Assembly (NCBI GenBank): GCA_002245135.1
Contig: NGBS01000599.1
Span: 1 to 64,000, forward strand
DNA from: Proteromonas lacertae
Lineage: Eukaryota
Direction: 5' to 3'
DNA: 64,000 nt
The position numbers and the translations under genes are program-made. The notes under the pieces are model-generated. The model saw only the letters and a list, made by a program, of their open reading frames with translations. It did not search any database and was not told the origin of the DNA. Shown here in pieces: positions 13,095 through 41,365 of the stretch; the first letter of the stretch is position 1; every line of letters starts with the position of its first letter.

Positions 13095-13568
13095 TTAGTC
13101 TTTATCATCTTCCAATCTGTTTTTAAAAATATTATATATAGAATTTAATTCTGAATTTGTATCGATTAAATAGAGATAATGATTTTTTATATATCTAAAA
13201 TTTTTAATAGTATTTGCATTCAAATTGAAATCTTCTTCAGAAATATATGCAAAATCTTCAACATAGAAAGTGTCCAGTTTATTAATTAATTTTTCTAAGT
13301 CTTCTATAATATCCAGTCTATAAGATGTTAATTCAGATTTGCTACATGTGGTAGCTATTTTACTCCTGTTATATTTCAATTCGATATTTTGTATGAAAGT
13401 TACAAAAGACTTTATTTTATCTCTTAGATCTGTTTTATCTTTACTACTAAAATTTTCACTTAGATTTAATTTATAGACCCTTCTATTTATATCATTTAAA
13501 CTACTAATATAATTTTTAAGTACATCAAAGAATACATAGAATTCATATACTCTAGCAAAATTACTCAT
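13095..13568 (-). CDS. Hypothetical helical protein, divergent from pPolB-B
   Basis: Intact 157-aa intronless ORF. Confidence 0.5.
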   Translation of the reverse strand: MSNFARVYEFYVFFDVLKNYISSLNDINRRVYKLNLSENFSSKDKTDLRDKIKSFVTFIQNIELKYNRSKIATTCSKSELTSYRLDIIEDLEKLINKLDTFYVEDFAYISEEDFNLNANTIKNFRYIKNHYLYLIDTNSELNSIYNIFKNRLEDDKD

Positions 13569-13794
13569 ATATTTGGTATTAATTAATTAGAAATACTACT
13601 AATAGAAATTGTTCTTCTAATTCAAATCTGATCCAAAGAATATAATATAATTCAAGTAAAAGAAAGAAATATAAAACAATAATATAAAATAATAAATATA
13701 AATCGTAAAAGAATTGATATATAACTTTTAGAAATTTATAAAAGAATAAAAATAATAATAAAAATATATAAAAAATTAATTTTTAATTTTCTAG

Positions 13795-16700
13795 ATGAAC
13801 CCTTTCATCCCTCCTTATTATTATTATTCAAACTTTAATTATTATAGTCCACCACCATTTGGAGCACCTTATATTCCTCCTCCACAAAATTATGGATTTA
13901 ATCCCATGCCCATGCCATATCCAGGTATGGCACCTCCTAATATGTATGAACCACCTCCACCTATTCAAAATATTCCAGTAGCTAGAAATTATGTTCCACC
14001 AAGAAATCTAGTTACAAATACAAATCCTGGTTTCAATTATTATCCTGGAAATATAGGAGTAGATTCAACACCTCAAATTAATATTCCTGAACCAGGATTT
14101 GTAACACCACCTCCCAAGAGAAGATTAGATTTCGAAAACATAAGTCCTCCAAAAATACAAAGAAAAGGAGGTATGCAGGTTCCAATGCCTAATCCTAATC
14201 CTAATCCAAATCAACCTGTTGTTAATCAACCTCCACCAAATGCACAACAGCGTAATAGAGTAGCAGATTTAAATTTATCTTATCAAGAAGAAAGAGATTT
14301 AAGAGAAGCAAGCGATATATTAGAAAATCATCCTACTAAATTATTAAAATTACAATATGAAAAGAGATTATATTATATGGACTTAATTCAGAGAAGTACA
14401 GATAATTACAGTAGAACATATCAAATTAACTTTTTAAACGATGTAAATGGTATGGATCCAGATGCTGTAGTTGAAATTATAACTGATCCTAGTAGTCCAT
14501 TAATTACTAAAATAAGAGAATATTTGGAAGATGTTAAATATATAAAAGTAACATTAAGTTTTAGAAGTGGTTATATAGGAGTAGACGATCCAGATTATAA
14601 TAATCCAAATGGTAATAAAATAACAAATTGGGTTTATTTAGAATGTAAACCTGTAGTTATTACAGAATCAGAAATGAATGTAGCTCATAAAATATTAAAA
14701 GATAGAATAAGAACAGAAATGGGACCTTTATGGCATACTGAAAAATCAAGTTTAAAATTTAGACATGTTGGTGAAGTTGAAGTTCATTTAGTCAAAGCAA
14801 CTGCTATGGCAGGTAGTGGTAAAAATAAAGAACTTCCAGATTGGATAACTAATAAAAAATGTGTTATATCAATAGATAATAATAAAGAAAATGATCAATT
14901 ATGTTTTCTATATGCTATAGCAGCAGCATTTTTTCATGGTAATAATAATAATAAGAATTTAAATAGAGTAGAACAATATAAAGATTATATTAGAGTTAAC
15001 TACAATTAGAGTATATTATATTTCCCAGTAGATCCTATTAAACATAATAAACATATTCATGAATTTAAAACAATAATTCATCTAACATTAAATATATTCA
15101 AAATAACAGATAAAGAAGTAGTTCCTATATATGTAATACATATAGATAAATTCAATAATTATCCACATGTGAATTTATTATATAATGATAAACATTATTC
15201 TACTATTACAAAATTAAATGTAATATTAATACCTAAAGGAAAGAAGTGTAAAAATGGTTATCCAAGATGTAATTATTGTTTTGCTTTATTATCAACAGAT
15301 GAAAAAAGAATACAACATGAAAAATATAATTGTCAACAACATAAAGGTATTATAAGAAATTTCCCTGAAAAAAATATTCAATTAGAATTTAAGAACTTTA
15401 AATATATGAATACCTATAGTAATATATTGGGATACTGAAGTTTATCAGGAGAAAGTAACAGATCCAATTTTAAATGAGAAAGGTATTTTATCAAAGCATA
15501 TATTATCCAGTTGGTGTTTATATGTTGTATCTAAATATCCTAATATATATCCTAATAAAATTGAGTATGATTTTAAAACACCTAAAGATAATGAAACAGA
15601 TTTAGAGGATAGATTAATAGCTAAATTTATGGAAATACAAAAAGAAATATTAGATTTATATGAAGAAAAATTAAAAAATCCTGAAAAAATGATAGGATAT
15701 AATAGAGAAGATCCTAAAAATAAATTGAATTATTGTATATACTGTAAAGAACCATTTGATTATAGAAATAAGAATAAAAAACCTGTATTACACCACGACC
15801 ACTTTAGTGGACAATATATAGGTAGAATATGTAATAATTGTAACTTCCATGTAAGTTTAAATAATATGCCAATCCCTTGTATTGCTCATAATTCCAAAAA
15901 TTATGACAATAATTTCATTATTAGAGGATTTTCCAGATGGGATAATAAGTTAAGAGATGAATTTTGTAAAGAAAATAATATTGATCCTAATGTAAATTAT
16001 GCTTCAGATACTGAATCTGATAGTGATACTGAAGAAGAAGAAGATAATACTATTACTAATACTAATTCTATTCCTGTTCCACAGTAAGATAGTGATACAT
16101 TTACTCCATTACCTCCTTATACTAATGGCTTTATAACAGATAATAAAATAAAAGATTATGTGAAAGATTTGAGAAAAGAAAAACAACAAGAAAAAGATGA
16201 TAATAATAATAATAATTTCAGTATGAGTCCATTACATGATTCTTTAAGTGATATGGAAACTCAAGAAGTTGAAAGTGAAGTAATCCAAATTATTAATGAA
16301 GAAGTTAATGCATTATTAGAATTAGAAGAAATGTTAAGAAGAGATAGCCCTAGAAATGCAGAAGATGTTATAGATGAAATAGATGAACAATCTGCTTATA
16401 GAATTATTAAATGTAAAGATGGTAAAATAAGAAAATATAAAAACAAAAAATAATATAAATCACAATTATTAGTATTACCTAAAACAGATAATAAATTTTT
16501 ATTAATAAAGTTCAACAAATTATACTTTATGGACTCATATCAATTCTTACCAAGTTCTTTAGATTCTTTAACAAAGTCATTATATACTCAAGCAATAAGA
16601 GATAATGGAAATTATCAAAAATATTTCAGTTATGTATATGAAGATATTTATAAAAAATATTCTGCTCCTGGTAAATTAGATCATGATATGAAAATTGATG

Positions 16701-18712
16701 CTTTTATCCATAAATGGTGTTTATCTAAAGGATATTTTCCATATGAATATGTGAACTCATTATCTAAATATTTCAATACTTTTGAACTACCTCCTAAAGA
16801 AACATTCTATTCAAAGTTAAAAGATGATAATACTGTAACAGATGTTGAATATGCTAGTTGTCAGGCTTTATGGAAAGTTATTAGATGTGATAACTTAATG
16901 GAATACAATTTATTTTATCTCAGATTAGATGTTCTTACATTAACATGCGTATTTGAACATTTTAGAGATGTTATATGGAATAATTTTACTTTGGATCCAT
17001 TATGGCATTGTAGTTCACCTGGTTTATCTTGGAGTATATTCCTTAAAAATTGTGATGTAAAAATTGATTTAATAAGTGACTCTGATATTTATGACTTTAT
17101 ACATTCTGGATTAATAGGTGGGATTTCTATGGTTGGTAGTATGAGATATGCAGAGTCTTGGAATCATTATCAACCTCAATGGCAAGAGAAAAATAAAAAG
17201 GAAGTACAGGATCCAGATAATCAAGCATATATTATGTATATGGATTATAATTCTTTATATCCAAGTACTATGGCTAGTATGAAGTTACCATATAGTGAAT
17301 TTGAATGGATTGAACCAACTACTGAAAATGTTAAGAAAATATTATCATTACATTACTATGAAGAACAAAGAGAAAAATATTACAATACAGAATGGATTAA
17401 TAAAAATATGTATGGATATATTCTAGAAGTAGATATTTCTCCTCCTAGTAATAGTAATGAAAGAAAAAAATTTGCTGAATATCCTTTGTTACCAGAAAGA
17501 AAAATAGTTGACTATGATAATTTATCTGAAATACAAAAGAAATGGGCAGAATCTTTAGGATTAGTTTCAGAAGCTAAAAATAATATTGATAAACCATATA
17601 AAGTTAAAAAGTTAAAGTCAAATGTTCCTAAAATAGTATGTGATTTAACAACAAAATACAACTATGTTGTTCACTATCAATATTTGAAATTTGCATGTGA
17701 AATGGGTTATGTTATACATCATATTCATAAAATTATCAGATTTAAAGAGTCTAATTATGCACATAACTTTGTAATGATGAATCATAACTTAAGAAGACAA
17801 GCTAAATTAGAAGGAAGGGATGCTGATGCTGATACTTTTAAGCTTATTCTAAATAGTGCTTATAAAAAGACTTGTGAAAATACTGAGAATAGATGTACTT
17901 CCAAATTGGTTAATAATGAAGAAGACTTTTTAAAGTGTACTTCCAATCCATTTTATAGAAGTTTTATTGCTATAGATAATAGTAACTTACGTATATGCAA
18001 ATTTCAAAAATATAAATGCACTATTGATAAACCATTTTATATTGGTATGAGTATATTATGTGAATCTAAAAGGTTAATGGCTCAATTCTGGTATGGACAT
18101 TTATATAGGAAATATGGGACTAGCTTAAGATTATTGATGAGTGATACTGATAGTTTCATATTTATGGTTAAAACTAGAGATTTCTATATGGATATTATGA
18201 ACGATCCACATTTTGAAAAGAAAGTTGATACTGGTAATCTTAATAAACAATACTTAATAACTAAAGGTATACACTATTCAAATGTTAATCAAAGTTCAGA
18301 ACTTAACTTATTAAAAATAGAAGAAAATAAGAATGGTTTATACTCTATTACTAGATTTGCAGGATTAAAACCTAAAATGTATGCCTATGAAAAAGTAAGA
18401 GTAGACGATGATATACATACTGTTACACATGATAGTAGAGCTAAAGGAGTTACAACTGGATATAGAATTAAAACTTGTGATTTTGACTTTTATAGAAAAA
18501 TATTAACAGATGCTGAAGATGAAAAGTCTTACAGAGTTGATAAAATCAAACAATATAGTTTCAGAAGTATTAACCAAACTTTATATACTATGGAACAAAA
18601 TAAGTTGGCTTTCAGCATATTTGATTCTAAAAGGTATTATTTAGATGTTTATCATAGTATTCCTTTTAATGATTATTATCCACCTATTATTAATAACACT
18701 ACTAATGTTTGA
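13795..18712 (+). pseudogene. Protein-primed family B DNA polymerase (pPolB-B), disrupted
   Basis: Five ORFs join via TAG 15007, a frameshift near 15410, TAA 16085 and TAA 16451. Motifs: NDQLCF/KHY, YWDTE, HHDHFSG..CNNCN, AHNSKNYD, DYNSLYPS, KLILNSAYKK (G lost), SDTDS, LKPKMYA, AKGV. Confidence 0.93.
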
Positions 18713-18806
18713 AACTTTGATATTTCTTTTTTATATTATTATTATTATAATATTATGATATTTTTTATTATTATTTTTTTTATATTATATTATAAAATAA
18801 AAAATA

Positions 18807-20168
18807 ATGTATTTCGGATGGGATCCTGCTAAAGCATTTTTTAATACTATGAATGATATAGGTAACTTAATGGAAGAAAGACAACAGCCTCCTCCTAAAC
18901 CTGACTATTCTTTACAATATTATATGAATAATGGTAGAGATGCTATTAAACGTTTTGCACCTCCTGAAAAATATAACCCTTATCCTAATCCTCAATATTC
19001 TCAATATCAAAATTGTTTACAACAACTATATAATAAATATCATTATTTAAGTGATAGAGATTTTATTAAAATGGTAATGAATCCTGTTAATAAAAATGAA
19101 ACTCCACCACCTATAGATGCTATAAAAGAATTTTTAGCTAGACAACCTGTTCGTCAGATTGTAGACTTTCACTATAAACGTGACCATCCATTTGCAAGTA
19201 TTAAAAAGCCTGGATGGTTCCAGATGGATATAGTTTTCTTTTTACCAGAACTTAAACATTTATAAATCATAGAAACTAATTCTCGTAAAGTGTGTGTTAT
19301 TCCAATACAAAGTAAAGGAGGTGATGAAAATTTAAACGCTTGTAAATCGTGGTATTATAAAGAAGATGCAGATTCTTATTTAAATGGAAATTATCAACCT
19401 AATATAGTAGCTAAAAGAAGAGTTATTAGTATTTTGAGTGATTATGAAAATGGTTTTGAAACAATAAAAGAATTTTGTAATAAAGAAGGTATAAATACTT
19501 ATTAAAAGAATCCTTCAGAACATAGAATAATGAGTGTATTAGATAGAAGTGTTTCTATTGTTAAAAAACTATTGTATAAACGTCTTATAGATATAAATTT
19601 TGATGCTCCTTTTCGTTCTTTTAATGTTAATAATAATCATAGAGAATCTATGTATAATCAATATATGTCTGAATGGATAAAAACATTTAATAGAGAAGTA
19701 TATGCAGTAGTACAAGACTATAATAATAAACCTCATCCTGCATAAAAAGGATATACTCCAAATGAAGTATATCATTCTGAAATATTACAAAAGAAAATAT
19801 TAGTAGATAGTATAAATAAAAATGTAGATAATGAATTTAAATTAGAAGATAAACAAAAATTTAAAATAGGTGATATTGCTAGATTTAAAGAAAGAAGAAG
19901 ACAATTAGATAAAATAACTACTTGGAGTGATGATGTTTATATGATTATAAATAAGTTTAGATTTTCTTATCAAATAGGTGATACTAATGGTAACTTTGTA
20001 CCTACTGTTAGTAATCAGAGGTTTAAGCATTATGAATTAGAATTAGTAGAAAGAGCGCAAGATAGAAAAGCTTATTTTAGAGCGTATCAAGCAAACAGAA
20101 GATTTTTTAATCAACATTTTAGAAAAATATTACCAAGGCCAGCAACAATTCAAAAGGGAATAGTATAA
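18807..20168 (+). pseudogene. rve-family integrase B, three in-frame TAA stops
   Basis: One frame throughout: FQMDIVFF, IIETNSRK, ILSDYENGF, VLDRSVSIVK, YNNKPHPA*KGYTPNEV, FKIGDIARF; stops at 19263, 19503 and 19743. Confidence 0.9.
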
Positions 20169-20201
20169 TATATTCCATTAATTAATTAATTAATTAATTA
20201 T

Positions 20202-20873
20202 TTAAAGTTCTGATATGTCAATAACTGCTCTGCTATTGACAGGAACTTTTGATAAATTATTATTATCTTCTGGAGGAGGAGGAGGAGGTTCTTCTTGTTT
20301 AATTTTGGGCTTTGGAGTTTCTTTTTTTTCTTTAATGATATGGTGTTCTTTTGAAACTCTTCTTCTTTTGTTATATTTTCTATCTTCTTCATAATCATCA
20401 CTATCATTATCACTACTACTACTACTACTACTATCACTACTAGAACTATCATTTTCTATATCAACATCTTCATACAATAAGTTTTCTATTTTATCTGGAT
20501 TCACATATGAAGGAATTACTGGATATTTGAATGTAGACCACCTATATATATTAATTTCTGTTTTCTTTAGAAAATACCACTTTTCATTTTTTGATTTAGC
20601 ATCTTCTGAAAATTTTTGAAAATCACCTGTAAATTGAATATGTAATGTGTTGAATTTGGCAAATATTTTTATATTACTATTAACATATTTTATTTCATCA
20701 CAATTTGTTACAGCTATTGTTACTAAATTATCCTCAAAAAATTGATTCTGAAATAGGATATCATTGTATAAATTCATAATATAAGTTGTTGGTAAATATT
20801 TCATATAATCATATAAATCAAATTGAAAATCATTAATTAATACATTATTTTTTGAATTGAATTTAATTTGCAC
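20202..20873 (-). CDS. Element B hypothetical protein with acidic/basic/Pro-rich tail
   Basis: 223-aa open frame with poly-Ser/Asp, KRRR and poly-Pro; start uncertain. Confidence 0.5.
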   Translation of the reverse strand: MQIKFNSKNNVLINDFQFDLYDYMKYLPTTYIMNLYNDILFQNQFFEDNLVTIAVTNCDEIKYVNSNIKIFAKFNTLHIQFTGDFQKFSEDAKSKNEKWYFLKKTEINIYRWSTFKYPVIPSYVNPDKIENLLYEDVDIENDSSSSDSSSSSSSDNDSDDYEEDRKYNKRRRVSKEHHIIKEKKETPKPKIKQEEPPPPPPEDNNNLSKVPVNSRAVIDISEL

Positions 20874-20905
20874 TTTAGAAGTAGTAAAAATTATTTTGTA
20901 TTTAT

Positions 20906-21720
20906 TTATAAAATTTCTAATGGATAAAAAATAGTATTATCATCCAAAATTTTATTAAGAGGAATAGTATTTTTGCAGAATAATGAATTAATTTTACTTC
21001 GTGTATTTGTTTTTCGGTTTTTTGCATCCATATACTTATCTTTCAAATAAATAAAAATATCTTGATATGCAACAAAGGATAAACTATAATATTCTGGATT
21101 GTCATCACATATATAAAATTTTAGTATATTTATTTTATTTTTGTAATCACAACTATATTTAATAGTTGTCCATATATAATTAATATCATTTTTGAGATTA
21201 TTATTATGTTCCTTAAAATATAATTTGATAGGATTGTGGAATAAACAAAATTTGAAATATCTTTCATCCATAATATAAAAAGGAATTTCACAAGACCATG
21301 TATAAAAATGTTGACCTCTATTCATATTAGTAATTATTTTTAAACACATAAAAGTGTTGAATAAGAAAATCCAATTTCGATACCCAGTCCAACTGTGGGT
21401 ATCTTCATATGCAATATAATAATTGCCTTCCATGTATTTTTTGACACAGGAATAATCAACACCAATATTTCAGACATTATTATTATAATATATAAAGATA
21501 TCTGATTCTGTAATTAAAAAATTATGTAAGTGTTTGCTATGGACAAATTCCTCCCAACAATATACACCTTGAAATTGACCATTAAAATTTTTATATCTAA
21601 TTTTTATAATGTCTTCTATATCAAAATTTGAGAGTGCATCTTCAGACAATTTGTTTAATATTACTTTTCGACGAGATATTATTCTCCGTCTTTTTCTTTT
21701 ATTATATCTACCTAATCCAT
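20906..21720 (-). pseudogene. Degenerate adenain-like protease homologue
   Basis: From ATG 21720: LSNFDIEDIIK...FQGVYCW resembles the Polinton protease N-terminus; GYRNWIFL sits where GTHW is expected; stops and a frameshift lie upstream of ORF 20906-21433. Confidence 0.35.
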
Positions 21721-21795
21721 TTTTATATATATTATAAAGTTGATTAACATTTGCATAAGAAGTGCCAAAATTAGTTAATTCAACAGGTAAATTAA

Positions 21796-23460
21796 TTATT
21801 CAGCAGGTATTGCAAATATACTATTAGAAGTTGCAGGATTTGATTTTAAGAAGCTAAATAATCCTCCAGCATCTAATAAACCAAATATAGAACCTGCTGC
21901 AGTTACTAAGACACCTATAAAACCTATCCATCCTATAAATCCTTTAACATCCCAAGGTGAAGTAGGATAGTTAGGAAGCCAATTTTTACTATCCCAGAAT
22001 TTTTCAGGCTTTCCAAAACTAGCAAATTTAGCAAACTGAGGAAGTGCAGCTAAGAAAAATTGTATATATGGATGATTTCCTAATAAAAATGAACTTGCAA
22101 AGTTCCACAAAAATCCAAGTGGTAGCTTTGAATTTCTTATAGAATCAGGCAAATAGGATTCTATAGAACTATATTCAGCATTATATAATTGTTCTAATGG
22201 TGGTAACCTTCCACCAGATAAATTTTGTATTATTCTATAATAATCAGGTAAAAAATGCTAAAAAACATAAAATAATCCTCTCATTCCATAATAACCTTTC
22301 TAATATCCCCACCAAGCTATAGCTGTCATTATTACAGCATGTATTTGTTTCATTACATATTCTATTTCTACTCTATTTGGAGTAACTCCACCATATAAAT
22401 AATTCTTCATTTCATAATAAAACATAGGAAATATCATTAAAACATTATCAACACATTTTATTAAATTCCACAACATCACCATGTTGTATATTATCCATAG
22501 CTTTTTTAAATTGACTACCTTCATAACCTTTCCACTTACTGCAAGCATCTTTTAATATTCTCATACCTATATCATATTTTTCAGCATCTGAAGCTCCATT
22601 CCATCCTTTAAATGTTTCACTATTTCTTAATTTTGCTATATTTTTTGACCTCCTTTGATTTTCATCTATAACAGTTGATTTATTTATATTTATAGGATTA
22701 GGATTTTTAATAGCTTTAAATTTATCCATTGTTTTAGGATCAGCGTGAAGCATATAATAAAGATAACCTCTTTCTTCTATATCTTCTGGTTTAAGTAATC
22801 TAGGAGCTAATTGATTAGCTAAAGCTTGATTATCATTAAATTTTTTAAAGTCAGGAGGATATTCTTTTGCTGCATCTTCCATATTTTTTAAAGCTGAAAA
22901 TAATTCTTGTTTTAATAATTCTTGTTCTAATTGATTTATATTTCTATATCTAAATTGAATTTTATCTCCTAATATGAATATTTCATAAGGCTTTTCTCTA
23001 GCTGCTTGATAAAATGTTTGATTAGTAGGAACTCCCATAGCATTTTTTAATTGTTCTGTTGTCATATTTACTATTTCAGGATTTAATTTAACTAAAGGAT
23101 TATTTATAGTATTTACTCCATTATCATAAGGATGAAAGTATTCATCAGAATTCACTTCTTTTACAATTGAATTTAATTTGACAGGTAAAACTATATTAGC
23201 CCTAGGATTTCTAGGATCTATATATTTTGTATTATATTTACCTAAAAATGGAAGGGAAGTAAAATCATTATTCAAAAATGGTTGATAATATTCTTCATCA
23301 AGACGAGGTATCTTTTGATATACCTTCATTATATAATTTTTCTAAGTTCCAGTTATAATCCCAACCAACTTGCTGGCCATTTTTAAATAATCTACCAACT
23401 CGCAAAGAATTATTATTATTAACAGTTGTATCTGTTGTATTAGTTGCACCTCCTAATTTT
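21796..23460 (-). pseudogene. Disrupted gene with C-terminal hydrophobic/membrane segments
   Basis: ORFs 22448-23329, 22300-22548 and 21796-22152 join via a frameshift and two in-frame TAGs; hydrophobic segment GFIGWIGFIGVLVTAAGSIFGLL. Confidence 0.5.
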
Positions 23461-23523
23461 TTATTATTATTATTATTTAATAATCAACTATGACAGCGAT
23501 GCCTCCGTGGTATCTTATTTTTA

Positions 23524-24999
23524 CTATTTAACTCTGCTATGATATTTTTGAATATTTCTTCTACCTGTTCCTGATTTTTTACCATTCCACCAATTTATTA
23601 TAGCATTTACAGGATTTAAACTAAGATTTGAAGGAACTCTATTTATATCAATAGCTAAATTAGGATCATATTTATGTTCTTCTATTAAGTCTTTCCAGTG
23701 ATTATTTATCCAAAAGTTTTCTAAATTAGGATATTTAGTTTTCAACTTAACTAAGTCAACATTTCCATGTCTAAACCACTTTTGAACTTCTTCAGTTACT
23801 CCTGCCAAGTTATCAGGTAACCCAGGATTATGAATTGGTGGAGGTACATAAGCTGGATTAGGAAGCTGCGGCGACAATAAACTACTATTTTTCTTGTAAC
23901 CATATACAGTAAAATTAGGATTAGGACAAGTTGCAGTTGGGTTAGGACATTGAGCATTATTTGCTTAGTATTCATTATAAGGTGTATAAGCTGGATCAGG
24001 ACATTTATCCCAACCAAACCATCATGCAAATTTATTACTTATTTTATTTAATGCCCATTTAAAAGGTGTTAATAACCATGAAATAGTAATAAATACTGTA
24101 TTTAAAAGATTTGGAGCAGAGTCTCCTTTAAACCGATTGACAAAATAAGTCCAAAACTCTCTTTGATATGACCATAATATTGCACTTAAACCTCCAGCCC
24201 ATTTAAGTTTAGTTTCATCAAAACCAAACATTTTATTCATTAACCAATGCTTGTTCTATACTACCTCCCATTAAAGCTAACATTAATACTCCACAACCCC
24301 ACCATAACCACTCTGCTGCAGTTGTTATATGATGATCTTTAAACCATTCAATAACTTGATTACTAAACCAGTGTTTTTGTTCTGTATTCATACTCTCTAT
24401 TTTATTTGTTAAATTTTGACTATCTTGTTGAGAAAGATTAAATTTTCTTTGCCATTCTTGTGCTTCTTCATTATATTGACCATTTGTATTATTCCATCGT
24501 TGGCTGTTAACATAAGAACCTGTATTATAAGCAGCAGGATTTTGTAAGTTATGAACATAATTAGTACCATTAACCCACTGTCCTTGATCGTTTTGATAAA
24601 ACATATTTTGAGTATTTGGAATAAAAGGGTTTTGATATTGTGTAGTCATATTAGCTGGATCTCCATAATTACTATATGGTGTAATAAATTGCCCAATATT
24701 TTTATAATATCTTCCAAATTGGTCTGTTATTTGAGACATATATAATTTATATTTATCTTCATCAGACATATAATTATTTAATAGAGTAGAATCATATAGT
24801 TCTAATTGTGTATTAGCAGAATCAGCTAAATCTTTATCTACATTGACTGTAGGATTAGCTAAATTTGATAAGTCTGACTTTATTTTTTTATTACTAGATA
24901 ATTTTCCTCACTATTTATTTCATCCTCATACTGTATCTTTCTCTTTTTATTATTATGTTGTTTATGTTTACGTGTTCTAACTTGTTTAATAACAGGCAT
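23524..24999 (-). pseudogene. Disrupted gene with basic N-terminus, N/Q-rich region and Trp-rich hydrophobic segments
   Basis: ATG 24999 MPVIKQVRTRKHK; ORFs 24233-24769, 24022-24240 and 23524-23877 link by frameshift and in-frame TGA/TAA. Confidence 0.5.
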
Positions 25000-25061
25000 T
25001 ATATAATATATAAATAGAAATATTATCAAAAAGAAGAATATAAAGATAAAGAATATTATTA

Positions 25062-25289
25062 TTAAGCTTCATTTAATAAATTTTCAAATATAATAATAAC
25101 TACATCTTTTCTGTTAACTGAAGCGCTAGTTCCACCTACACCTGGAATTTTATTTATTTTAACACTAGCATCAGCTATACCTTTTACTAATTTTTCATAA
25201 TCTGGTCTATTGCTGTTTGTGTACAACATTGAGCCAAATAAATGTTGGTCGTCCAATTCTCTTTGAGTTGAAGCAATAAGATTAGCCAT
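25062..25289 (-). CDS. Short ORF, possibly a truncated capsid N-terminus
   Basis: MANLIAST...RPDY...KINKIPGVGGTS...VIIIFEN is loosely like MCP N-termini. Confidence 0.25.
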   Translation of the reverse strand: MANLIASTQRELDDQHLFGSMLYTNSNRPDYEKLVKGIADASVKINKIPGVGGTSASVNRKDVVIIIFENLLNEA

Positions 25290-25609
25290 ATTATTCCTGT
25301 ATATATTAGAAAATCTCAACAAATACAAAATCAACAACAATAAGTACCGCCACCTCCACTTCAAACTCCATCAACTCAAAATCAAAATCAATCACAAATG
25401 GATCAAAAAGCAGAAGAAGCATACAACGAATTAATGGCTGATTTACCTCCACAAATGAAAGATTTATTAAACAATATAAATCCATCAACATTAGAACAGG
25501 CTATATTTGAATTAAATAGAATAGCTGATGAAGCTCTTAAACAACTGCATAAATATCTGTTATACTTTTAATGATAACTATTCTTTGTTTTTGTCTGTAA
25601 TAATATAAA

Positions 25610-26205
25610 ATGAGTTCTATGCACATATTTAACATAGTAGACGATGATTTGAGTGATAATCCAGACCATAACTAAAAAAAATATAACTGCTAAGAAAAGA
25701 AAGCGTAATGCTGAACAGGATTATGAGAATATGATGGATTACTTCTATGGAGAAGCTGAAGGTTGTGGAGGTTCAGACGATGAGGATTCATACGATTCTG
25801 AAGATGATGAAAATGCATCAGATGTCGATTCAGATGGTAACTTAATAGGTTTCATAACTAACGATAACGATGATGATGAGTCATATGAGCCAACAAAATC
25901 TGAAGAGGAGGAGATGGAATACGCATCTAGCGATGATGATAAGCAAGATAAAAATAAAGATGATATAATAATAATAAAAGGTAAAAGAAAAAATATAACA
26001 AATGCTTTATTAAACTCATTAGCTCCATTAAATTTATCTGAAGCAGAAAGAATTAACCAGAAGGCAGAAGATATATTAAAGAAGTTAAGTCAAAGTAGAT
26101 CAATTATGTGAAAATGCAAGTACTCCATATGGCATTATTATAAGAAGTTTAAATCAAACAGTGAAAGCATTATTTGAAATATCTTCAGAAAATAGAAGTA
26201 ATTTT
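25610..26205 (+). pseudogene. Acidic nuclear protein N-terminus, interrupted by hAT
   Basis: NLS-like KKRKR, YFYGEAE..SDDED...DSDGNLIGFITND; frameshifts near 25675 and 26090; the shifted frame runs into the hAT end. Confidence 0.5.
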
Positions 26206-31039: not shown

Positions 31040-33090
31040 ACTCAGAGAAACAGAAAAGATAGATTTGAGAAGTATAATTTAATATTTTTATATTCATTTA
31101 GATAATCAACATATGAAAGTGTAGAAATACATATTAGCCGTTTATTTTCAGTGTCAAATCTTAAAGAACTTCAATTGGATGGAAATGAGACTGCAGATTC
31201 AGGAATACATTTACATTAAAAGATGAAGAATTATTGAAACCAAGAGTAAAAGCGCAAGATTCCTTTCTCAACTAAAACAGAAAAGAAAGAGTAAATATTC
31301 AATAACAAAATCTATTGATGAGATTGAGAATAAAGAGAACGAACATATTTATAATCCAACTCCTCCTCCAACAGTATTTATATTTCATAATATATAAGCC
31401 ATTTAGATGATACACAAATAGAATGTGAATAATATATAAACAAAATCATTAAAAGAATCTCCAAGTAATAGTAATATTAATGGAAGTACAAAATTAAATA
31501 ATTTGAATTTAAATACTTCATTATATCAAGTCACCAATTTCACCTCGTTTATTGAATGGAGAAAATGAATTAGTTCGTAGTAGTGCACCAGTTGCTGCTC
31601 CAGTATAAAGCAGTTGTTCACAGTGAGACAATGAAATTTACTGATCATTTATCCAATATATTAGTTCATAAAAGAATGTATAATACTAATAATTAATATT
31701 ATTTTATATATTAATGTAAATTATAGTGTTATCAATATTCCGTATATCCAAAGTTACTGAAATGAAGTAATTGGATATATAATTTGGTGTGATGGAAGTA
31801 AAGGATGCTGCTTATGAAGAATTATTGAAACAAAGAGTAGAAAAGAAAGTATTATTTACAGGTATCATTTATAGATATCATTTACAGGTAGTTTAGTAAG
31901 AGAAATTAAATATATTATATATAGAATTATTCGCATATAAAGAGGAGTTTAATAGAATACATTTTAATAGAATCTTCAATAGAGATAGAATTATCTTCAA
32001 GTGGATTAAATATTATTTTACAAGTTATTCATTAACAGTATATATATTTATATTAATAATATTCAATAATTATAATGAAATAGATATTCAAATTGATATG
32101 TTAGTTCATAAAGGTGAGATGAATTACAATTGATAATCTATTGAAAAGTTCTTCATTCATAAGTATATGTTTATATGTGATAATATTTATATTACAATAG
32201 ATTATCGACTGAATAGTATTTTAATTGAAGATGAAGGCGTGATGCTATTAACAAATGAACTAGATTCAGTTGAGTAGAATGTATATTTTATTTATTTTAT
32301 TATGTTGTAGATGGAAAAACCTTAAGTATATTTTTATTTTTTTTATAATTTTTTTTAGAATTAGATGTTTGCAATAGTATAATTAATTATTTTTCTTATA
32401 TTTATATAGGTTGGATTACAAAGAATATGTGTAATATATTGTTGTTCCCCGTATGGCGGAAATCTATATTGTAGAATGATTCAATCAAAACTAATATGAT
32501 ATTCATGATGTTTGGAGTCAGTTATTAACAAATATATAGTTAGTTTGTCATATGACCTACATCTGTGATATACTTTTTTATGAACTTCATTATTATCAAT
32601 ATTAAACTAATTTTTGTATATTTTCTATTTTAATGTATCAGTGACTACTACAGTCTAAAATACATTATCTGATATGAATAGAATTCACTATTTTTAATGT
32701 TAAGGCGGTTAAAAAAGAAAAAAGAAAAAATAAGCTCAAGCCTCACTCAAGCCTGCTATTTAATTTCCTTTTTTATTACCTTAACATTAAAAATAATGTA
32801 TTCTATTCATATCAGATAATGTATTTTAGACTGTAGTAGTCACTGATACATTAAAATAAAAAATATACAAAAATTAGTTTAATATTGATAATAATGAAGT
32901 TCATAAATAAGTATATCACAGATGTAGGTCATATGACAAACTAACTATATATTTGTTAATAACTAACTCCGAACATCATGAATATCATATTAGTTTTGAT
33001 TGAATCATTCTGCAATATAGATTTCCGCCATACGGGGATTTCCGCCATACGGGGAACAACAATATATGATGGTGAAGATATTATATTATA
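31040..33090 (+). pseudogene. Decayed intron-rich host gene carrying a MITE insertion
   Basis: Protein-like exon pieces separated by ~30-nt GT-AG introns (e.g. 31072-31101), with many stops; last exon VGLQRICVI[MITE]YDGEDIIL*. Confidence 0.5.
32439..33062. mobile_element. Foldback/MITE element with ~270-bp arms
   Basis: Near-perfect inverted repeat TTGTTGTTCCCCGTATGGCGG...CCGCCATACGGGGAACAACAA; ~70-bp spacer; TATA on both flanks; 17-bp tandem duplication at 33021-33054. Confidence 0.92.
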
Positions 33091-33855: not shown

Positions 33856-34543
33856 ATGAGTAGAATTTTCATCTCTATCCTATTAATAAGCGCAGTCTGG
33901 GCGAATGGTTGCATTAAGACATATAATTGTGAAAAAGACAACTATTTTGACGATGTAATATTTGATGGTCATAAAGATTTTGAAAATCACTTAAAAAACA
34001 TCAGCAGTATGGAGAAATGCAATTGATAAAGAGGTACCTGATGTAATAAGCTGCTATTTAAAGAAGTCTAAACAATATAAATATTATGTCTTGTCAGATG
34101 TTGATATTATACTAATCAACATTCCTAACAATATGTTTGATTTATATAGCACAATTCTATCTAGTTGTAAGGTTAATGTAGTTGGGCCATCTTTAATGAT
34201 AAATGATATATCAATGCTATTTCCAGATTATAAAAGAGTTTATAATTTTGAAACAAAATATCTTAAAAGCAATCATTATGATGTTCTATATAAAAATTAT
34301 TATGTATCATTTATTGAAGCTGATATCGATACAATATTTGGAATGAGAAAAAGTACTGCAAGATTTAAAAGACATAGTAAATTATCATTTAGATCTCTAT
34401 CTCCTTATATATCACATCATATTGATTGGTATATCACAGCTAAATCTATTCCTAAATCTTTTATATACTATGTCAATCATTCAAAATCCATAAATCACTC
34501 TGGTTCTGCATTTAAAATTTCCAATTCACTAAAACAACCTTAG
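33856..34543 (+). CDS. GT-A fold glycosyltransferase (bacterial GT2-like), frameshifted at an A6 run
   Basis: Removing one A at 33993-33998 fuses two ORFs; hydrophobic N-terminus, YVLSDVDI (DxD), VGPSLMINDI, ADIDTIF, PYISHHIDWY. Confidence 0.6.
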
Positions 34544-34552
34544 AATTGATAA

Positions 34553-35509
34553 ATGTTAAATATATTTATTATATATTTTATTTTAATGGTGATTTGTGTT
34601 AGATACTATGATTATATTTTTAATAATTATATCTTTACAAGGATTACATTTAACAGAAATGATAATTTATCAGAATTGTTTATTAATTCTGTTAATATAT
34701 ACAATCAAAGAATAGATTATATAAATCGTATGTACAAAATGAATCAGATATGTAAGGGATGGAAGAAAGCAATAATTGTACTATTAAAATATGATGAAAT
34801 TAAAAAGTTTATAAATAGAAACTACTTATTTCTTATACAAAAATATCATGATGAATTAATATTCTTTGTTACTGAAAGAATATCTAAAACAACTTTATAT
34901 AAAGATATAAAATATATAGTAGTGGATATATCTGAAATTTTTTTCTCATTTCCTTATAAATTTAATCAATCAGCACATAAACCAAACTATATGAAGAGAG
35001 GAAAATGGAATTACCAACATATGTGTAGATTCTTTTTTAAAAATATATTTTTTCATCCCATATTGTGTGATGTTGATATTTATATGAGGCTTGATTCAGA
35101 ATCAATACTAAATACTACTCAAAATTTATTTAATTTAATGGGGGAAGGAATTGTCTATATGCACAATAAAATAATGAATGATTGTGGTAGATTAGTAGAA
35201 GGATTAAAACAATATATTTTTTCTTTTGTAAAAGCATTGAATATAGATATAAAAGATAAAGAAAAGTATTATTTAGCATTTAATAAAACTGCCCTATTAT
35301 ATTACAATAATTTTGAAATATGTCAAATGAAATTTTTTAGAAGTAAAGAAATGATTCTATTATCCAGTTTAATTGATTACAGTTATGGACAGTTTATTTA
35401 TAGATGGGGAGATGCTCCTTTAAGATATATTAGTTTATCTATGTTTGCTGATAACTCTTCAATAATTGCATTACCTCATTCAGTAAAATATTGCCATCAA
35501 AATTGTTAA
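34553..35509 (+). CDS. GT15 (Kre2/Mnt1-like) alpha-1,2-mannosyltransferase
   Basis: YQHMCRFF, YMRLDSE, YYNNFEI and RWGDAP motifs; N-terminal signal anchor. Confidence 0.9.
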   Translation: MLNIFIIYFILMVICVRYYDYIFNNYIFTRITFNRNDNLSELFINSVNIYNQRIDYINRMYKMNQICKGWKKAIIVLLKYDEIKKFINRNYLFLIQKYHDELIFFVTERISKTTLYKDIKYIVVDISEIFFSFPYKFNQSAHKPNYMKRGKWNYQHMCRFFFKNIFFHPILCDVDIYMRLDSESILNTTQNLFNLMGEGIVYMHNKIMNDCGRLVEGLKQYIFSFVKALNIDIKDKEKYYLAFNKTALLYYNNFEICQMKFFRSKEMILLSSLIDYSYGQFIYRWGDAPLRYISLSMFADNSSIIALPHSVKYCHQNC

Positions 35510-35518
35510 CTTAAAGTA

Positions 35519-35549
<31 letters not shown>

Positions 35550-35905
35550 TTATATAAAATCAACAAATTGTTAAAATTACTGTAATAGATTTTTTAATCT
35601 TTCAGTTGATGATATTTTACGTATTTGAATAGAAGCACCAGGAATAGAAACATAAGCAAAGCATAACTTATTTTTAGAATATAGTTCAATTATACTACTG
35701 ACAATAAGTAACTAGAGTAACTCTTATTAACCTATTTTTCTAATAGATAAGAAATTGACAAATATATCAATATTTTATATTATGTAATACATAGAGTAAA
35801 AGAAAAATATTTATACTGTCAACATAATTTATTGTACATGAGAATATATTATTACAATCCTTATAAAAAGAGTAAAAATTTCTATTAACAACCATATTTT
35901 AAAAT

Positions 35906-36901
35906 CTAGAATTTGTGATAATTTTTAATATATTTGCAAAATTTGCATGGCGTAAATATGTAATGTTTCATATTTTTATACCAATCTTTTGAATAATTGT
36001 AAGGCCAATTTATATATTCACTTAATATCTTTCTATCATTTCTAATTAAATAAACATAATTTATTAATTCGCTATAATTTTTAAAATCTTTTGCATTAAT
36101 AATTGAAAAATTAGTTGGATAAAATTTCTCAACATTTTTTGCTCCAAAATATATGGGAATTGATCCTCCTCTCATGCAATCCCATAGTTTTTCTGTTACA
36201 TAATCATCATCAATCGTATCTGAATGCATTTGTCCCCATTTAACTTGATTAATAGTATTTTCTATTGCTAAACAGAATTTATAATTTTTAATAAGTAAAT
36301 ATTTTTGATTGGGCAAGTTATCAGGCCATTTAAGATGATTCTTAAACGCTTGACCAAAAATATCTACTTTCATTTTTCTATTAAACATTTGGCATATTAA
36401 ATTTCTATTTTTGTATGGTTGTCTATAAATAAAGACAATATCTTTTCTTTTCATAAAATCATCAATTGATCTTAGAGATGCTTTTCCATCATTAATAATA
36501 TGAACAATATTATGATAATATGGATATGAGAAATGATGTTTTGATATGAGAAGTTTATAACTAATCAAAACATCAAATGAATTATCTCTTCCACTGCTAA
36601 TATATAGCATATTTTTCCATCTACTTAATGCTTCTACATTTATTTTTATATTTAAAATGTGATTATTTTTTCTTTGAGATAATGATTTTATGTAGCGATT
36701 ATACATAACAGCATTATAGTTATACATATTGTTATTATTTATAATACATTTTACATTTCCACATTTATATTTAGTATTATTTAGTCCAAACCATTCATCC
36801 ATATATCTACTATTTATGTATATATTATATAATTTGTTTTTCTTCCAAACTGCAATACAACCAACTATTAAAACAATAAATATATTTTGCGCTATTGTCA
36901 T
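35906..36901 (-). CDS. GT10 alpha-1,3/4-fucosyltransferase
   Basis: YKFCLAIEN...DDDYVTEKLWDC...SIPIYFGA; N-terminal signal anchor. Confidence 0.92.
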   Translation of the reverse strand: MTIAQNIFIVLIVGCIAVWKKNKLYNIYINSRYMDEWFGLNNTKYKCGNVKCIINNNNMYNYNAVMYNRYIKSLSQRKNNHILNIKINVEALSRWKNMLYISSGRDNSFDVLISYKLLISKHHFSYPYYHNIVHIINDGKASLRSIDDFMKRKDIVFIYRQPYKNRNLICQMFNRKMKVDIFGQAFKNHLKWPDNLPNQKYLLIKNYKFCLAIENTINQVKWGQMHSDTIDDDYVTEKLWDCMRGGSIPIYFGAKNVEKFYPTNFSIINAKDFKNYSELINYVYLIRNDRKILSEYINWPYNYSKDWYKNMKHYIFTPCKFCKYIKNYHKF

Positions 36902-36981
36902 TTACCAATTAAAAATATACAATATATATTGTATTAATAAGCCAATTTTAAAATTACATTTTTATTTTTTTCTTAATAAGA

Positions 36982-37166
36982 TCAAGATGGTGAATAGTTC
37001 TTCTTCGGTATATCTATTTATCTTCTGTAATTTCTGGGAATTTCAAGCAACAGAACATTCATAAGCGATCGGTGATCACTACAAGAGGAGTCACAGCAAC
37101 CAGAAATTACAGAATGTGCTGTTGACAATAACTACCTCCGGAACTTTAGGAATAGCCAATCTTGAA
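36982..37166. other. Long branched hairpin, candidate structured ncRNA or old MITE
   Basis: Perfect 15-bp stem 37023-37037/37100-37114; outer TCAAGAT/ATCTTGA and AGTTC/GAACT pairs; locally GC-enriched. Confidence 0.4.
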
Positions 37167-37327
37167 TAAAATGGAAATGAAATAGGAAATGAAAATATGA
37201 AATTATTATCTTCACATTTGCATTTATTGAAAGATTATGATATTTAAATGAATGCTTCAAGTATAATGATAATGTTAATGTGATATAGAAATGGGATTAT
37301 CATCAATTGGATTACACTTAATATTAG

Positions 37328-38323
37328 TTGATGATAATTGCAATTATATTAATTTGTATAATATTGTATGTATATATTCAATATTTAAATATTGATATTG
37401 GTAATTTGTTTTTAAATTATTTATTATATAGAGTATTAGATAAATCATTCACAAAAATCATTAAAAATGAGGCAAAATACTATACCACCTTTAACGATAC
37501 AGATTTAAACCTTCCACACATTATTGATTTTTCTGTAGTAAAAAATATAAAATGTTTTTACAAACCAAAAATAATCATTGCTGTTTTATCATCTCCTCAT
37601 AATTTTAAGAAGAGATTTTCATTTAGATATATCAGCAAAAATTATTGTAATGCTAAAACAAAATGCAAATTCATTTTCTTTATGGGATCGTCATATTATG
37701 AAGATAAAGTATTAATAAACAAAGAAACTGCTGCTTTTAATGATTTAGTACAGTTTTCATTTCAAAATAGTTATTTAAATTTGACAATTTTGTCTATCAT
37801 GGCTATAAAGTATTGCTATAGAATCTTTAAATATCTACATTATTACATTAAGACAGATGACGATGTTTTAATCAATTATTCTTTGTTATTCAATATTTTA
37901 ACCAGAATAAATATAAGTAATAACCATGTATTTGGACATTATGATGGTAAATTTACTGTAAACAGAAATAAAAACAGTAAAAGCTACATACCTTATTTTC
38001 AATATCCATATAAAGTAAGTCCAGCATATGTATATGGTGGATTAATAATTGTAACACAATCATCATTACATAAAATATATAAAGAAATAAGCAAAAATCA
38101 TTCATATGTTTGGAAAGAAGATGTAAATTTCGGAATTATATGCAAATGGTGTAATGTGACTGTCTTGCAATATCCTTGTTGTGTAGATGCAAAAAATAAA
38201 AGAAAAGAATGTGTAATTGATAATAATACTATTGCAATTGAAATATATAATAAAATAGATTCTTTCTATTGTATAAAACAATTTATAGTAAAATTTCATC
38301 AATTATTAGTAAATTCAGTCTAA
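37328..38323 (+). CDS. GT31 beta-1,3-galactosyltransferase-like
   Basis: IIIAVLS, DLVQFSFQNSYLNLT, YYIKTDDDV, PAYVYGG and EDV motifs; signal anchor. Confidence 0.92.
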   Translation: MMIIAIILICIILYVYIQYLNIDIGNLFLNYLLYRVLDKSFTKIIKNEAKYYTTFNDTDLNLPHIIDFSVVKNIKCFYKPKIIIAVLSSPHNFKKRFSFRYISKNYCNAKTKCKFIFFMGSSYYEDKVLINKETAAFNDLVQFSFQNSYLNLTILSIMAIKYCYRIFKYLHYYIKTDDDVLINYSLLFNILTRINISNNHVFGHYDGKFTVNRNKNSKSYIPYFQYPYKVSPAYVYGGLIIVTQSSLHKIYKEISKNHSYVWKEDVNFGIICKWCNVTVLQYPCCVDAKNKRKECVIDNNTIAIEIYNKIDSFYCIKQFIVKFHQLLVNSV

Positions 38324-38524
38324 ATTACTTCTTGTTGTTTAAAATATATAGTGATTATATAAAATATAGTGATTTAATTGATTATATATACTCTATTACA
38401 AATAATAATAATAAACTGAGCGTGTATATAAAACTATAAAAATTGGTAATAGTGAATAGAAAATCATGGTTATAAATATAATAAAAAATATAGCAACATT
38501 ACTCCTCTCTATTATTTTTATAAA

Positions 38525-39271
38525 TTGTTAATGATTCTGATAATCATTTTCATATTTCATTTATTTTTACTTATTAACATATGTATCTTTGTTTTATTTG
38601 TAAATGATAATCAAATGTGCATGTGGTATAATATAAATACAACCACTAATTTTGATACTAATAAATCAAATTTAATAAAAGGATATTTTCAAGTATTACA
38701 CATATTGAAAGTAAAATATTTTCTCGGATTTGGCTCTGAATTGGGTAGTTTTCGAAACAAAGGAATAATAAAGAATGATCATGATGTTGATATTCTTATA
38801 CCAATATGGATGAATTATCACATATTTAAATGTAATCATTATTTGCACTACTATCCTCAGAAATGTAATATATATACTAATCCTAATTATAAAATATGTA
38901 ATAAAACAAGAATAGAATATTTATTTATGTTCAAGGAGTACATAGAAAATATAAGTAAATCAAAAAGCGATTATTCATGTAAGTATTGGGGAAAATATGG
39001 TTATACTAGTTGTTGGATGTTTAAATCAGAATATTTATTTTTAGATATTTGGGTGTTAATAGGGAATGAATATGTTTACAATGATATTGATATTTGTAGA
39101 TGTTCATTTTCTGATAATATTGTCTATTGTAATAAAAATGCATTGAAATCAATTATTAGATTATATGGAAAAAATTATATGATTCCAAACAAAAAAGGGA
39201 GTGGAGATGTATTATGCAAAATAATAATCAACCCAAATAGAAATAATTCAATTTTACTTACAACTAGTTGA
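38525..39271 (+). CDS. LicD/fukutin-family nucleotidyltransferase-fold protein
   Basis: YFLGFGSELGSFRNKGIIKNDHDVDI, LDIW and LYGKNYMIP motifs; signal anchor. Confidence 0.88.
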   Translation: MLMILIIIFIFHLFLLINICIFVLFVNDNQMCMWYNINTTTNFDTNKSNLIKGYFQVLHILKVKYFLGFGSELGSFRNKGIIKNDHDVDILIPIWMNYHIFKCNHYLHYYPQKCNIYTNPNYKICNKTRIEYLFMFKEYIENISKSKSDYSCKYWGKYGYTSCWMFKSEYLFLDIWVLIGNEYVYNDIDICRCSFSDNIVYCNKNALKSIIRLYGKNYMIPNKKGSGDVLCKIIINPNRNNSILLTTS

Positions 39272-39466: not shown

Positions 39467-41365
39467 TTATACTACCTTTTCTGGATTATTACTAACATTC
39501 TCATGTAATCTCTCATTAAGATTATTATCATTTCTAATAACTGGTAAACTTCTTTGAGCTGGGATTACATTTTCATCTATATTACTATTACTATTTGTTG
39601 TATTACTTGTATTTTCAGATAGTTTTGATTTATGTTTACAACAATTCATCTTCTTGAAATATCCTCTTTTATACATCTGATAAAACAATGTAATAAAGAA
39701 TGCTTGACAAACCAATCCAACAGGCAAAGTAACATACAACACACCATCTGCAAGACCACCAATTAAAAATCCAAATGAACAACTACAAGCAGTTGTTAAT
39801 GCATAAGGCAATTGTGTAGCAACATGTTGCATATGAACACAATCACTAGATGTTGAAGACATGACTGTAGTATCAGAAATAGGAGAACAATGATCGCCAA
39901 ATATACTACCTGATAATACAGCAGCTAAACATATTGTATGTAATTCTGGACATACCCTTTCACAAATACCATTCATTATAGGAATTAATATACCAAAGGT
40001 ACCCCAAGCTGAACCTATTGAAAATGCTAAAATTGCAGAGAATATAAACACAATAAAAGGTAATATTCTACTTGGGAAATTTGATTTTTGTATTACATCT
40101 CCAATCCACACACCTGTTTGTAAATACTCTTTAGCTACAGATCCAATAGCCCAAGCCAAACATAATATAATCATTGTAGGCATCATCATCTTCATACCTT
40201 CTTTCACACCTTCTAATACATCAACAAATGTCATTATTTTTCTTGGGATATACATCAACATACATACAACTAAACATACACCACTTGACATACATAATGA
40301 AGTAGCTGAATCTCCATCTCCAAATACATCTGCAATTGATTTACCATTTCCTTCAAAACCACCACCATTGTAGATCATAAATACAAACACTAATATTATT
40401 AATAATATCAATGGAATTAATAAATCAAATACTCTTCCTTTGGTGGATATTTTTACTGTTGCTAAATCTTTTTCTTGTTTTATTACACTCTCTTCTACTT
40501 GACTTAATCTTCTATCGTCTGTTTCAGGTGCTTCTACTTTGTGTAATGCTCTTTGCTCTGCTTCAGCCATTGGACCATAATCAATTCCTGTTATACTGAT
40601 TGTTATTACCATTACTATTGTCAATACACCATATAAATTGTATGGAATTGTTTTGACGAATTGAACCATTCCATTTTTAACTATTTCTGATTCTTCCATT
40701 GCTGAGACTATTACAGCTGCCCAACTTGATATTGGAATAATGACACACATTGCTGCTCCTGTTGCATCTACAATGTAAGCTAATTTCTCTCTTGAGATCT
40801 TATTTAAATCAGTAACTGGCTTCATCACAGTACCTGTTGCAATACACGAGAAGTAATCATCGATAAATATAATTGCTCCTAGAAATGCTGTTGCTAATTG
40901 AGCACCAACTTTAGTATGGATGGCTTTTATTGCCCATCGACCATATGCTACTGTTCCTCCAGCTGCTGTCATTATATAAACTAACGAACCTAACATTAGA
41001 CAAAACATAATGATTGTAGCTCCACTACCAATGGATTCTGCGAGAATTATAAATGGTAATCTTAATATTTCTAAGAAAAATTCACCTTTTACACAAATAT
41101 AAATCAACGAACCTAACAAAATACCTGACATTAAAGAAGTTAATACTTCTTTAGTGACAAGAGCTAAAGCTAAAGCTAAAATGGGAGGTAAAATAGAGTA
41201 CCATGCTGGTTTTATACCAATGGAGTCGGTATTTGCCGTAGTTGGAGGGAAAGTTGTTATATCTGTATCATTGCCTAATAATGATGCATTTAAAGCAAGA
41301 GCAGCAGCAGTTGTGAGTGCTTTTGTCACAATGTGGTTATTTACCATTCTAGTAACAAAATTCAA
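39467..41365 (-). CDS. NhaC-family Na+/H+ antiporter-like transporter
   Basis: Multi-TM 632 aa; FIDDYF, ISREKLAYIVD, PISSWAA, GSAWGTFGILIP, GDHCSPISDTT and HVATQLPYA motifs; intronless. Confidence 0.9.
   Translation of the reverse strand: MNFVTRMVNNHIVTKALTTAAALALNASLLGNDTDITTFPPTTANTDSIGIKPAWYSILPPILALALALVTKEVLTSLMSGILLGSLIYICVKGEFFLEILRLPFIILAESIGSGATIIMFCLMLGSLVYIMTAAGGTVAYGRWAIKAIHTKVGAQLATAFLGAIIFIDDYFSCIATGTVMKPVTDLNKISREKLAYIVDATGAAMCVIIPISSWAAVIVSAMEESEIVKNGMVQFVKTIPYNLYGVLTIVMVITISITGIDYGPMAEAEQRALHKVEAPETDDRRLSQVEESVIKQEKDLATVKISTKGRVFDLLIPLILLIILVFVFMIYNGGGFEGNGKSIADVFGDGDSATSLCMSSGVCLVVCMLMYIPRKIMTFVDVLEGVKEGMKMMMPTMIILCLAWAIGSVAKEYLQTGVWIGDVIQKSNFPSRILPFIVFIFSAILAFSIGSAWGTFGILIPIMNGICERVCPELHTICLAAVLSGSIFGDHCSPISDTTVMSSTSSDCVHMQHVATQLPYALTTACSCSFGFLIGGLADGVLYVTLPVGLVCQAFFITLFYQMYKRGYFKKMNCCKHKSKLSENTSNTTNSNSNIDENVIPAQRSLPVIRNDNNLNERLHENVSNNPEKVV

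Follow-up and report, generated by a model that had tools for sequence, protein, structure and literature searches.

Eukaryotes seldom have unrelated glycan-building genes in clusters, most of the documented cases being from Mamiellales algae, trypanosomatids and fungi. In Aspergillus fumigatus the non-homologous genes for galactosaminogalactan adjoin one another, and encode an epimerase, a synthase, a deacetylase and hydrolases; they are co-regulated and serve a single polymer. In Leishmania transcription is polycistronic. Likenesses to the locus described here are found in two published systems. On chromosome 2 of Leishmania major, the passages that describe the SCGR/SCA array (PMC6993435) tell of two kinds of surface-glycan side-chain transferases that are interspersed, with gain and loss between species. 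The small outlier chromosomes of the Mamiellales (chromosome 19 of both Ostreococcus tauri and Bathycoccus) are described in the relevant passages of PMC5082852 and PMC3491373 as packed with glycosyltransferases (GTs) of mixed families having few introns, with transposon-related genes nearby, lineage-specific genes, paralogues in shifting contexts and a proposed role in surface glycans. We have analysed 64,000 nucleotides of DNA from Proteromonas lacertae (assembly GCA_002245135.1, contig NGBS01000599.1, positions 1 to 64,000; hereafter the window), in which positions 33856 to 39271 hold an island of glycan genes.

The island is a run of 5.4 kb in which, by the open reading frame (ORF) list and Pfam, no unrelated gene stands between the glycan-gene slots (Table 1). 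The first-pass annotation had described it as an operon-like cluster of five enzymes, and neither part of that description can be retained. There are four intact genes of four families, GT15, GT10, GT31 and a divergent LicD, together with the truncated remnant of a fifth. From the remnant to LicD the strands run +,+,-,+,+, so that the co-orientation of an operon is absent. The intergenic gaps are 9, 396, 429 and 207 bp in order. The tight gap said to separate the first two genes thus exists, but it lies between the remnant and GT15, i.e. its upstream partner is not a whole gene. GT10 and GT31 are divergently oriented across the 429 bp. Eukaryotic biosynthetic gene clusters are recognised by at least three adjacent non-homologous enzyme genes; here there are four, from four families. 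Each of the intact genes is a single open frame with an N-terminal hydrophobic stretch (maximum Kyte-Doolittle value, KD15, of 2.4-3.3). A hydrophobic N-terminus had been claimed for all five genes; this is correct for these four but not for gene 1, where the apparent start belongs to an out-of-frame 56-codon ORF. The GC content at third codon positions (GC3) of all the island genes is host-like, host exons having values of 0.14-0.19.

Table 1. Features of the island and its surroundings in the window.
Feature	Position	Strand	Basis or location
56-codon ORF, signal-like start, likely spurious	33856..34026	+	frame, GC3 0.36, alignment tests
3' remnant, 177 codons, of a ~304-aa type II family of probable GT-A fold (GT2-like), likely dead	34010..34543	+	relatives' alignment, model
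GT15 (Kre2/Mnt1-type) glycosyltransferase, 318 aa, intact, N-terminal anchor	34553..35509	+	Pfam, motifs
GT10 fucosyltransferase-family, 331 aa, intact, eukaryote-type	35906..36901	-	Pfam, motif, tree
GT31 beta-1,3-glycosyltransferase-family, 330 aa, intact	37331..38323	+	Pfam, motifs
Divergent LicD/fukutin-type phosphotransferase (assigned), 246 aa, intact nucleotidyltransferase motif	38531..39271	+	family-level matches
Palindromic miniature inverted-repeat transposable element (MITE)-like element, 634 bp	32434..33067		~0.8 kb upstream of island
Two protein-primed-type DNA polymerase B (PolB) genes and weak integrase-core matches	404..26108		~8 kb or further upstream
NhaC-family antiporter-like gene, single open frame	39467..41347	-	195 bp from LicD, outside island

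On balance, we interpret the four intact genes and the remnant as a birth-and-death island of Golgi surface-glycan enzymes in a transposon-rich, rearranging region, and not as an operon. We count in its favour that one of the five members is truncated, that the window copies of GT15, GT10 and LicD nest among close relatives, that the MITE-like element and the polymerase and integrase elements lie upstream, and that there are published parallels (PMC3491373, PMC5082852, PMC6993435). Gene copies of about 1 kb would be gained, moved and lost as small units in transposon-rich regions. Each gene would be transcribed on its own and, from what is known of the families, would give a type II, Golgi-anchored product. 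GT15 would transfer alpha-mannose from GDP-mannose, GT31 a beta-1,3-linked galactose or N-acetylglucosamine from a UDP-sugar, GT10 an alpha-1,3/4-fucose from GDP-fucose that is probably made by salvage, and LicD a phospho-alcohol from a CDP donor. The surface-glycan role proposed for the genes from the start is likely.

The region of gene 1 (33856-34543) is composed of two frames rather than one ORF; the 56-codon ORF is followed by 33995-34543 in another frame. Using the read-through as query we found six relatives of the remnant among 112 candidates, with lengths of 264-318 aa and identities of 63-74%, all of them Logan proteins and five with an N-terminal anchor. The relatives align to the window only from about residue 128 onwards, at 66-74% identity, 34010-34540 corresponding to residues 128-304 of relative P0036. 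In a frameshift-aware alignment to the 610 bp upstream, their residues 1-127 gave a score of 28; the controls had a mean of 35 (standard deviation 6), 34 of the 40 scored as high, and the positive control scored 460. A single frameshift as the cause of the break is therefore ruled out, and about 380 bp of coding sequence of this family are missing from the whole window. The 56-codon ORF, with a GC3 well outside the host range (0.36), is likely to be spurious and, from the alignments, shares no homology with the remnant's family.

Could the break be an error of assembly, with five intact genes in the organism? The remnant is little decayed, with an open frame over its 177 codons, high identity to its relatives and a host-like GC3. 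Nevertheless we think this improbable, because the break is not a single indel, and the loss of ~380 bp of coding sequence window-wide would require a mis-join.

None of the seven proteins of the gene-1 family (the window read-through and six relatives) has a Pfam GT-family match at E<=1, and no sequence match to a solved structure was found for the family. In the Atlas, a full-length member lies at 0.96 to clusters in which 29-38% of the members are GT2. In a model of low confidence (predicted local distance difference test, pLDDT, 45) strands alternate with helices across residues 61-157; the model aligns with GT-A structures over some 100-165 columns, with a best E of 8.7e-4. The family is thus likely to have a GT-A-like fold. 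By profile comparison it shows no relation to GT15. The complete nucleotide-sugar-binding subdomain is not present in the window copy, in which residues 1-127 are missing; judged from the model, these comprise the anchor, the stem and the first three predicted strands of that subdomain. The remnant is therefore likely to be inactive. The GT2-like gene of the first-pass annotation is not a whole gene: only the 3' 177 codons are present. There is also no Pfam GT2 match. The 9-bp spacing suggests that the full gene once stood directly ahead of GT15. With so short a gap, the promoter and 5' untranslated region (UTR) of GT15 would overlap the remnant or sit upstream of it. The persistence of the remnant may reflect a recent origin, or the presence in it of this promoter and 5' UTR.

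The GT15 family is usually regarded as fungal. The window protein matches Pfam PF01793 at 35.3 bits (cut-off 25) and contains the motifs YQHMCRF, NNFEI, RWGDAP and YCH, while carrying RLDS where Kre2 has RVEP. Comparison of the family profile with solved structures gave Kre2 at 1.3e-45, the best relatives being the yeast enzymes Kre2 and Ktr4. A search of a large protein collection covered GT15, GT10, LicD and the remnant family. It returned 28 GT15 matches among 678 candidates, of which 16 are at 45-64%, all Logan proteins. In a quick tree of 50 rows (after removal of 24 of 74 as near-duplicates, and with ORFs below 190 aa excluded) the window GT15 falls into a 14-row clade with a support of 100, beside loci of eukaryote type such as L005. 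Neither a giant-virus clade (L026, L058) nor the copy in a bacterial operon (L027) groups with it. In the first of these, which also includes related loci, the GT15 genes are on giant-virus-like contigs close to topoisomerase IA. The second (L027:9722-11537, + strand) is a capsule/O-antigen operon with adjoining GT15 and GT10 genes.

The GT10 protein scores 82.6 bits against the C-terminal profile PF00852 (cut-off 23.9), and has no match to the Pfam N-terminal GT10 domain. The alpha-1,3-fucosyltransferase motif is present (YKFCLAIEN...DYVTEKLW...GGSIPIYFG), and among solved structures plant FucT and human FUT9 match best, at 2e-21 to 2e-19. Eleven relatives were found among 516 candidates, seven being Logan proteins at 56-63%. 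In a quick tree the protein falls in an 8-row clade with a support of 99, and the rows from bacteria and viruses lie outside it. The published table of gene counts for P. lacertae contains 25 GT10 and 11 FUT8-like genes and two L-fucokinases, with no entry for GDP-mannose dehydratase or for GDP-fucose synthase (PMC10690189). With no de novo GDP-fucose genes listed there, the fucosyltransferases would have to rely on fucose from salvage or on another donor, and this suggests that fucosylation in P. lacertae is salvage-dependent.

GT31 matches Pfam PF01762 at 90.3 bits (cut-off 23), with the motifs KTDDDV (DDD) and EDVNFG (EDV); human B3GALT5 is its best solved match (2.6e-14), with B3GNT2 also among the best. 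Just past its anchor there is an intron-like AT-rich stretch (37401-37439, + strand), of which the 39-nt version preserves the frame. GT31 may be spliced, and the intron heuristic marks three candidates inside the gene. The statement that all the genes are intronless is thus correct in that the intact genes are single open frames, but is qualified by these three candidates.

LicD lies just below the cut-off of Pfam PF04991 (21.1 bits against 22.6, E 3.6e-4). However, 15 of the 18 aligned family members give the match, at best 4.9e-10, and the nucleotidyltransferase motif (GS...R...DxDxD) is present as GSELGSFR and DHDVD. Comparison of the profile with solved structures gave FKRP at 1.6e-5. The relatives comprise 54 cluster representatives, 22 of them at E<=1e-10, and of ten that were looked up the eight best full-length ones are Logan-only. 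The window copy is in a 17-row clade with a support of 99 in a quick tree. From these matches we assign the gene as a divergent phosphotransferase of the LicD/fukutin type. Where relatives were searched (GT15, GT10, LicD and the remnant) the sequence comparisons indicate separately expanded families with close relatives.

The size of these families raises the question of chance. The published P. lacertae genome has 27% GC and 23,189 genes (PMC10690189), and its InterPro table gives 59 GT31, 48 GT92, 14 GT15 and 3 LicD entries besides the 25 GT10, with 74 PA14, 4 NhaC and 172 protein-primed PolB. In the same table GT10, GT15 and LicD are at zero in all eight Blastocystis genomes, and protein-primed PolB in seven of the eight. 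The window carries GT10, GT15, LicD, GT31, PA14, NhaC and protein-primed PolB together, a mix that best fits a Proteromonas-like stramenopile and speaks against an AT-rich Blastocystis. Our model took 387 GT-like entries (overlapping families summed) of the 23,189 genes. Scattered evenly, these would give 0.002 runs of four in a genome and 3e-5 runs of five. If the GT-like genes number 250-600, the expectation is 0.0003-0.01 runs of four, and about 2,000 such genes would be needed to expect one. That the run arose in this way simply because the families are so large is very improbable, even given their expansion and the fact that a scan reads very many windows and so picks out rare runs. Note that four random GT genes would all be of different families half the time. 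It had been allowed at the outset that expansion might make clustering expected by chance. The expansion is indeed strong, but not enough under even scatter, and we find support for a non-random grouping of unrelated glycan-modifying genes of Golgi type.

Regional crowding alters this picture. With 80% of the GT-like genes in 10% of the genome the expectation rises to 0.64 runs of four and 0.085 runs of five, and with 80% in 5% of the genome to 4.3 and 1.2. The run is thus non-random, yet explicable by an assumed regional crowding without selection for a pathway. Several points weigh against the birth-and-death island. The crowding is an assumption, and the counts are those of the published table. 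Among the ORFs scanned across the rest of the 64-kb window (27 proteins, and tblastn with homologs) there is no other GT. The island is therefore tight and not part of a broad GT-rich zone, and this fits a selected unit as well. Moreover in Blastocystis ST1 the 125 GT locus tags listed in PMC5608401 include one adjacent pair where 2.4 are expected, taking the tags to be positional.

Such a selected unit would be a co-regulated pathway cluster in which the four enzymes act sequentially on one glycan (e.g. a mannose core, a beta-1,3 extension, a fucose cap and a phospho-alcohol), the block being inherited or swapped as a glycotype haplotype. We regard this as possible but doubtful. It accords with the rarity of the run under even scatter and with five slots that are all occupied by glycan genes of different families, with none unrelated between them. 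The divergent GT10 and GT31 could share a promoter in the 429 bp, the activities are chemically compatible from family knowledge, and co-regulated GT blocks are described on chromosome 19 of O. tauri (PMC5082852). By contrast, one member is truncated, and the Pfam scan of window proteins found no gene for donor synthesis, nucleotide-sugar transport or export in the run, where a self-contained cluster would be expected to carry them. Linkage elsewhere also tends against it, if weakly. A metagenome scan gave 76 distant GT15 loci (best segments at 24-42%) and no close ones, and another island family lies near GT15 in only one of the 76, the bacterial capsule operon. The match lists of GT15 (22 longest-contig values), GT10 (8), the remnant family (6) and LicD (27) have no value in common, which is a weak proxy as only the longest contig is given per entry; those reaching 2.2 kb number 13, 4, 1 and 13 respectively. 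None of the papers listed in our literature searches describes, judged by titles and the openings of abstracts, a GT cluster in Proteromonas or Blastocystis, the P. lacertae genome paper lying outside the scope of that survey.

A fuller form of this idea is a swappable glycotype cassette in a gut stramenopile. Here four co-regulated Golgi enzymes would build one fucosylated, phospho-alcohol-capped surface glycan using fucose salvaged from host or bacteria, and isolates would carry different cassettes, much as bacteria have different serotypes; the pressure would come from host immunity or from the Polinton-like viruses integrated nearby. We consider this unlikely. If true, a co-regulated variable cassette would amount to serotype-like genetics in a eukaryote, while an island of gene turnover is a modest genomic observation.

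The surroundings of the island are rich in transposon and virus-related sequences, as the first-pass annotation held, with MITE-like and PolB/integrase elements upstream. The arms of the MITE-like element are 275 nt long and 96% complementary, with an identical 6-base AT repeat on both sides, and the element has apparently inserted into the terminal exon of a gene rich in introns. Its 12-nt end occurs a third time at 29208, beside a second inverted-repeat element (28397-29206). The region 404-26108 would represent Polinton-like elements, judging from its polymerase and integrase-core matches; it has many orphan ORFs, several of which are broken. The GC content of the window is mostly 22-31% with one block near 41%; a 40%-GC block lies at about 6000-12000 against a background of 25%. 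There are no enclosing terminal repeats of at least 40 nt around the island and no telomere repeats in the window. A scan for sigma-70 promoters was at chance level, though this bacterial model is not meaningful for a eukaryote. Exact look-up of five window proteins found none of them.

Several host genes have short introns of ~26-49 nt by the heuristic. Neighbouring genes had been described as mostly intron-rich. Of the seven analysed, three are so, with 1.6-5.2 candidate introns per kb, but the other four have 0-0.5; four of the seven have exons of 1.9-6.7 kb. The protein supposed to be mucin-like (47597-54433, - strand, 8 kb from the island) is instead a large membrane protein of type I in which PA14 and HRM-like matches occur; it has 36 N-glycosylation sequons, 15% serine plus threonine and one short Thr/Pro tract. 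It is a possible glycan acceptor, but the connection with a mucin proposed at first is not supported. The NhaC-like gene is closest to mostly bacterial clusters, and is possibly an old bacterial acquisition.

That bacterial affinity bears on the origin of the island, which might have been captured as a block from a bacterium (i.e. from a capsule operon) or from a giant virus, and be tied to the endogenous viral elements nearby. Single open frames, the 9-bp gap and the adjoining GT15 and GT10 of the bacterial operon could all be taken in this sense, as could the presence of GT15 in giant viruses and a giant-virus protein (L077) in which GT2, GT10 and LicD domains are fused. We give such a capture very little credence. 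The island proteins have N-terminal anchors and host-like GC3, their best solved matches are eukaryotic enzymes, and in the trees GT15 and GT10 group with lineage paralogues, apart from L027 and, for GT15, the giant-virus clade. The scans of viral contigs covered GT15, the remnant family, GT31 and GT10. They gave no close relatives for GT15 (0 of 14), the remnant family (0 of 120) or GT31 (0 of 20), and for GT10 only distant matches at 25-41% (6 of 138). A scan of prokaryote genomes gave one of 49, a 46-residue match, and a scan of phages gave no close relative. A recent block capture from virus or bacterium was rejected on these trees, GC3 values, anchors and scans; recent block transfer thus appears unlikely, while single genes may have been transferred anciently. 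We note that the L077 protein (6381-13766, + strand, on a viral contig) has 2,462 aa and fuses GT2, GT10, GT49, MGAT2, LicD and GH38 domains, so resembling a one-chain glycan assembly line. The same matches occur in L078.

The individual enzymes can be compared with characterised proteins. Yeast Kre2 and Ktr4, plant FucT, human FUT9, B3GALT5 and B3GNT2, and FKRP and LicD share motifs with the island proteins but are distant relatives, and the donors and acceptors given above are predicted from family only. As a whole, the island differs from the galactosaminogalactan cluster of A. fumigatus in having no donor, export or hydrolase gene and one truncated member. The Leishmania array, as presented in the source cited at the beginning, consists of tandem paralogues of two families, where in the island five families are each represented by one copy, on mixed strands. 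The Mamiellales chromosomes combine mixed GTs, few introns and nearby transposons, and this small outlier chromosome pattern is found here at the 5-kb scale only. In the corresponding descriptions each is a whole chromosome of 150-250 kb that also carries methyltransferases, epimerases and transporters and is co-regulated in virus-resistant lines. The island is a 5.4-kb run of transferases only, in what is presumably another supergroup. The four-family run in an opalinate gut protist adds a further lineage to the pattern, in the form of a small, testable unit of four ~1-kb genes at one locus.

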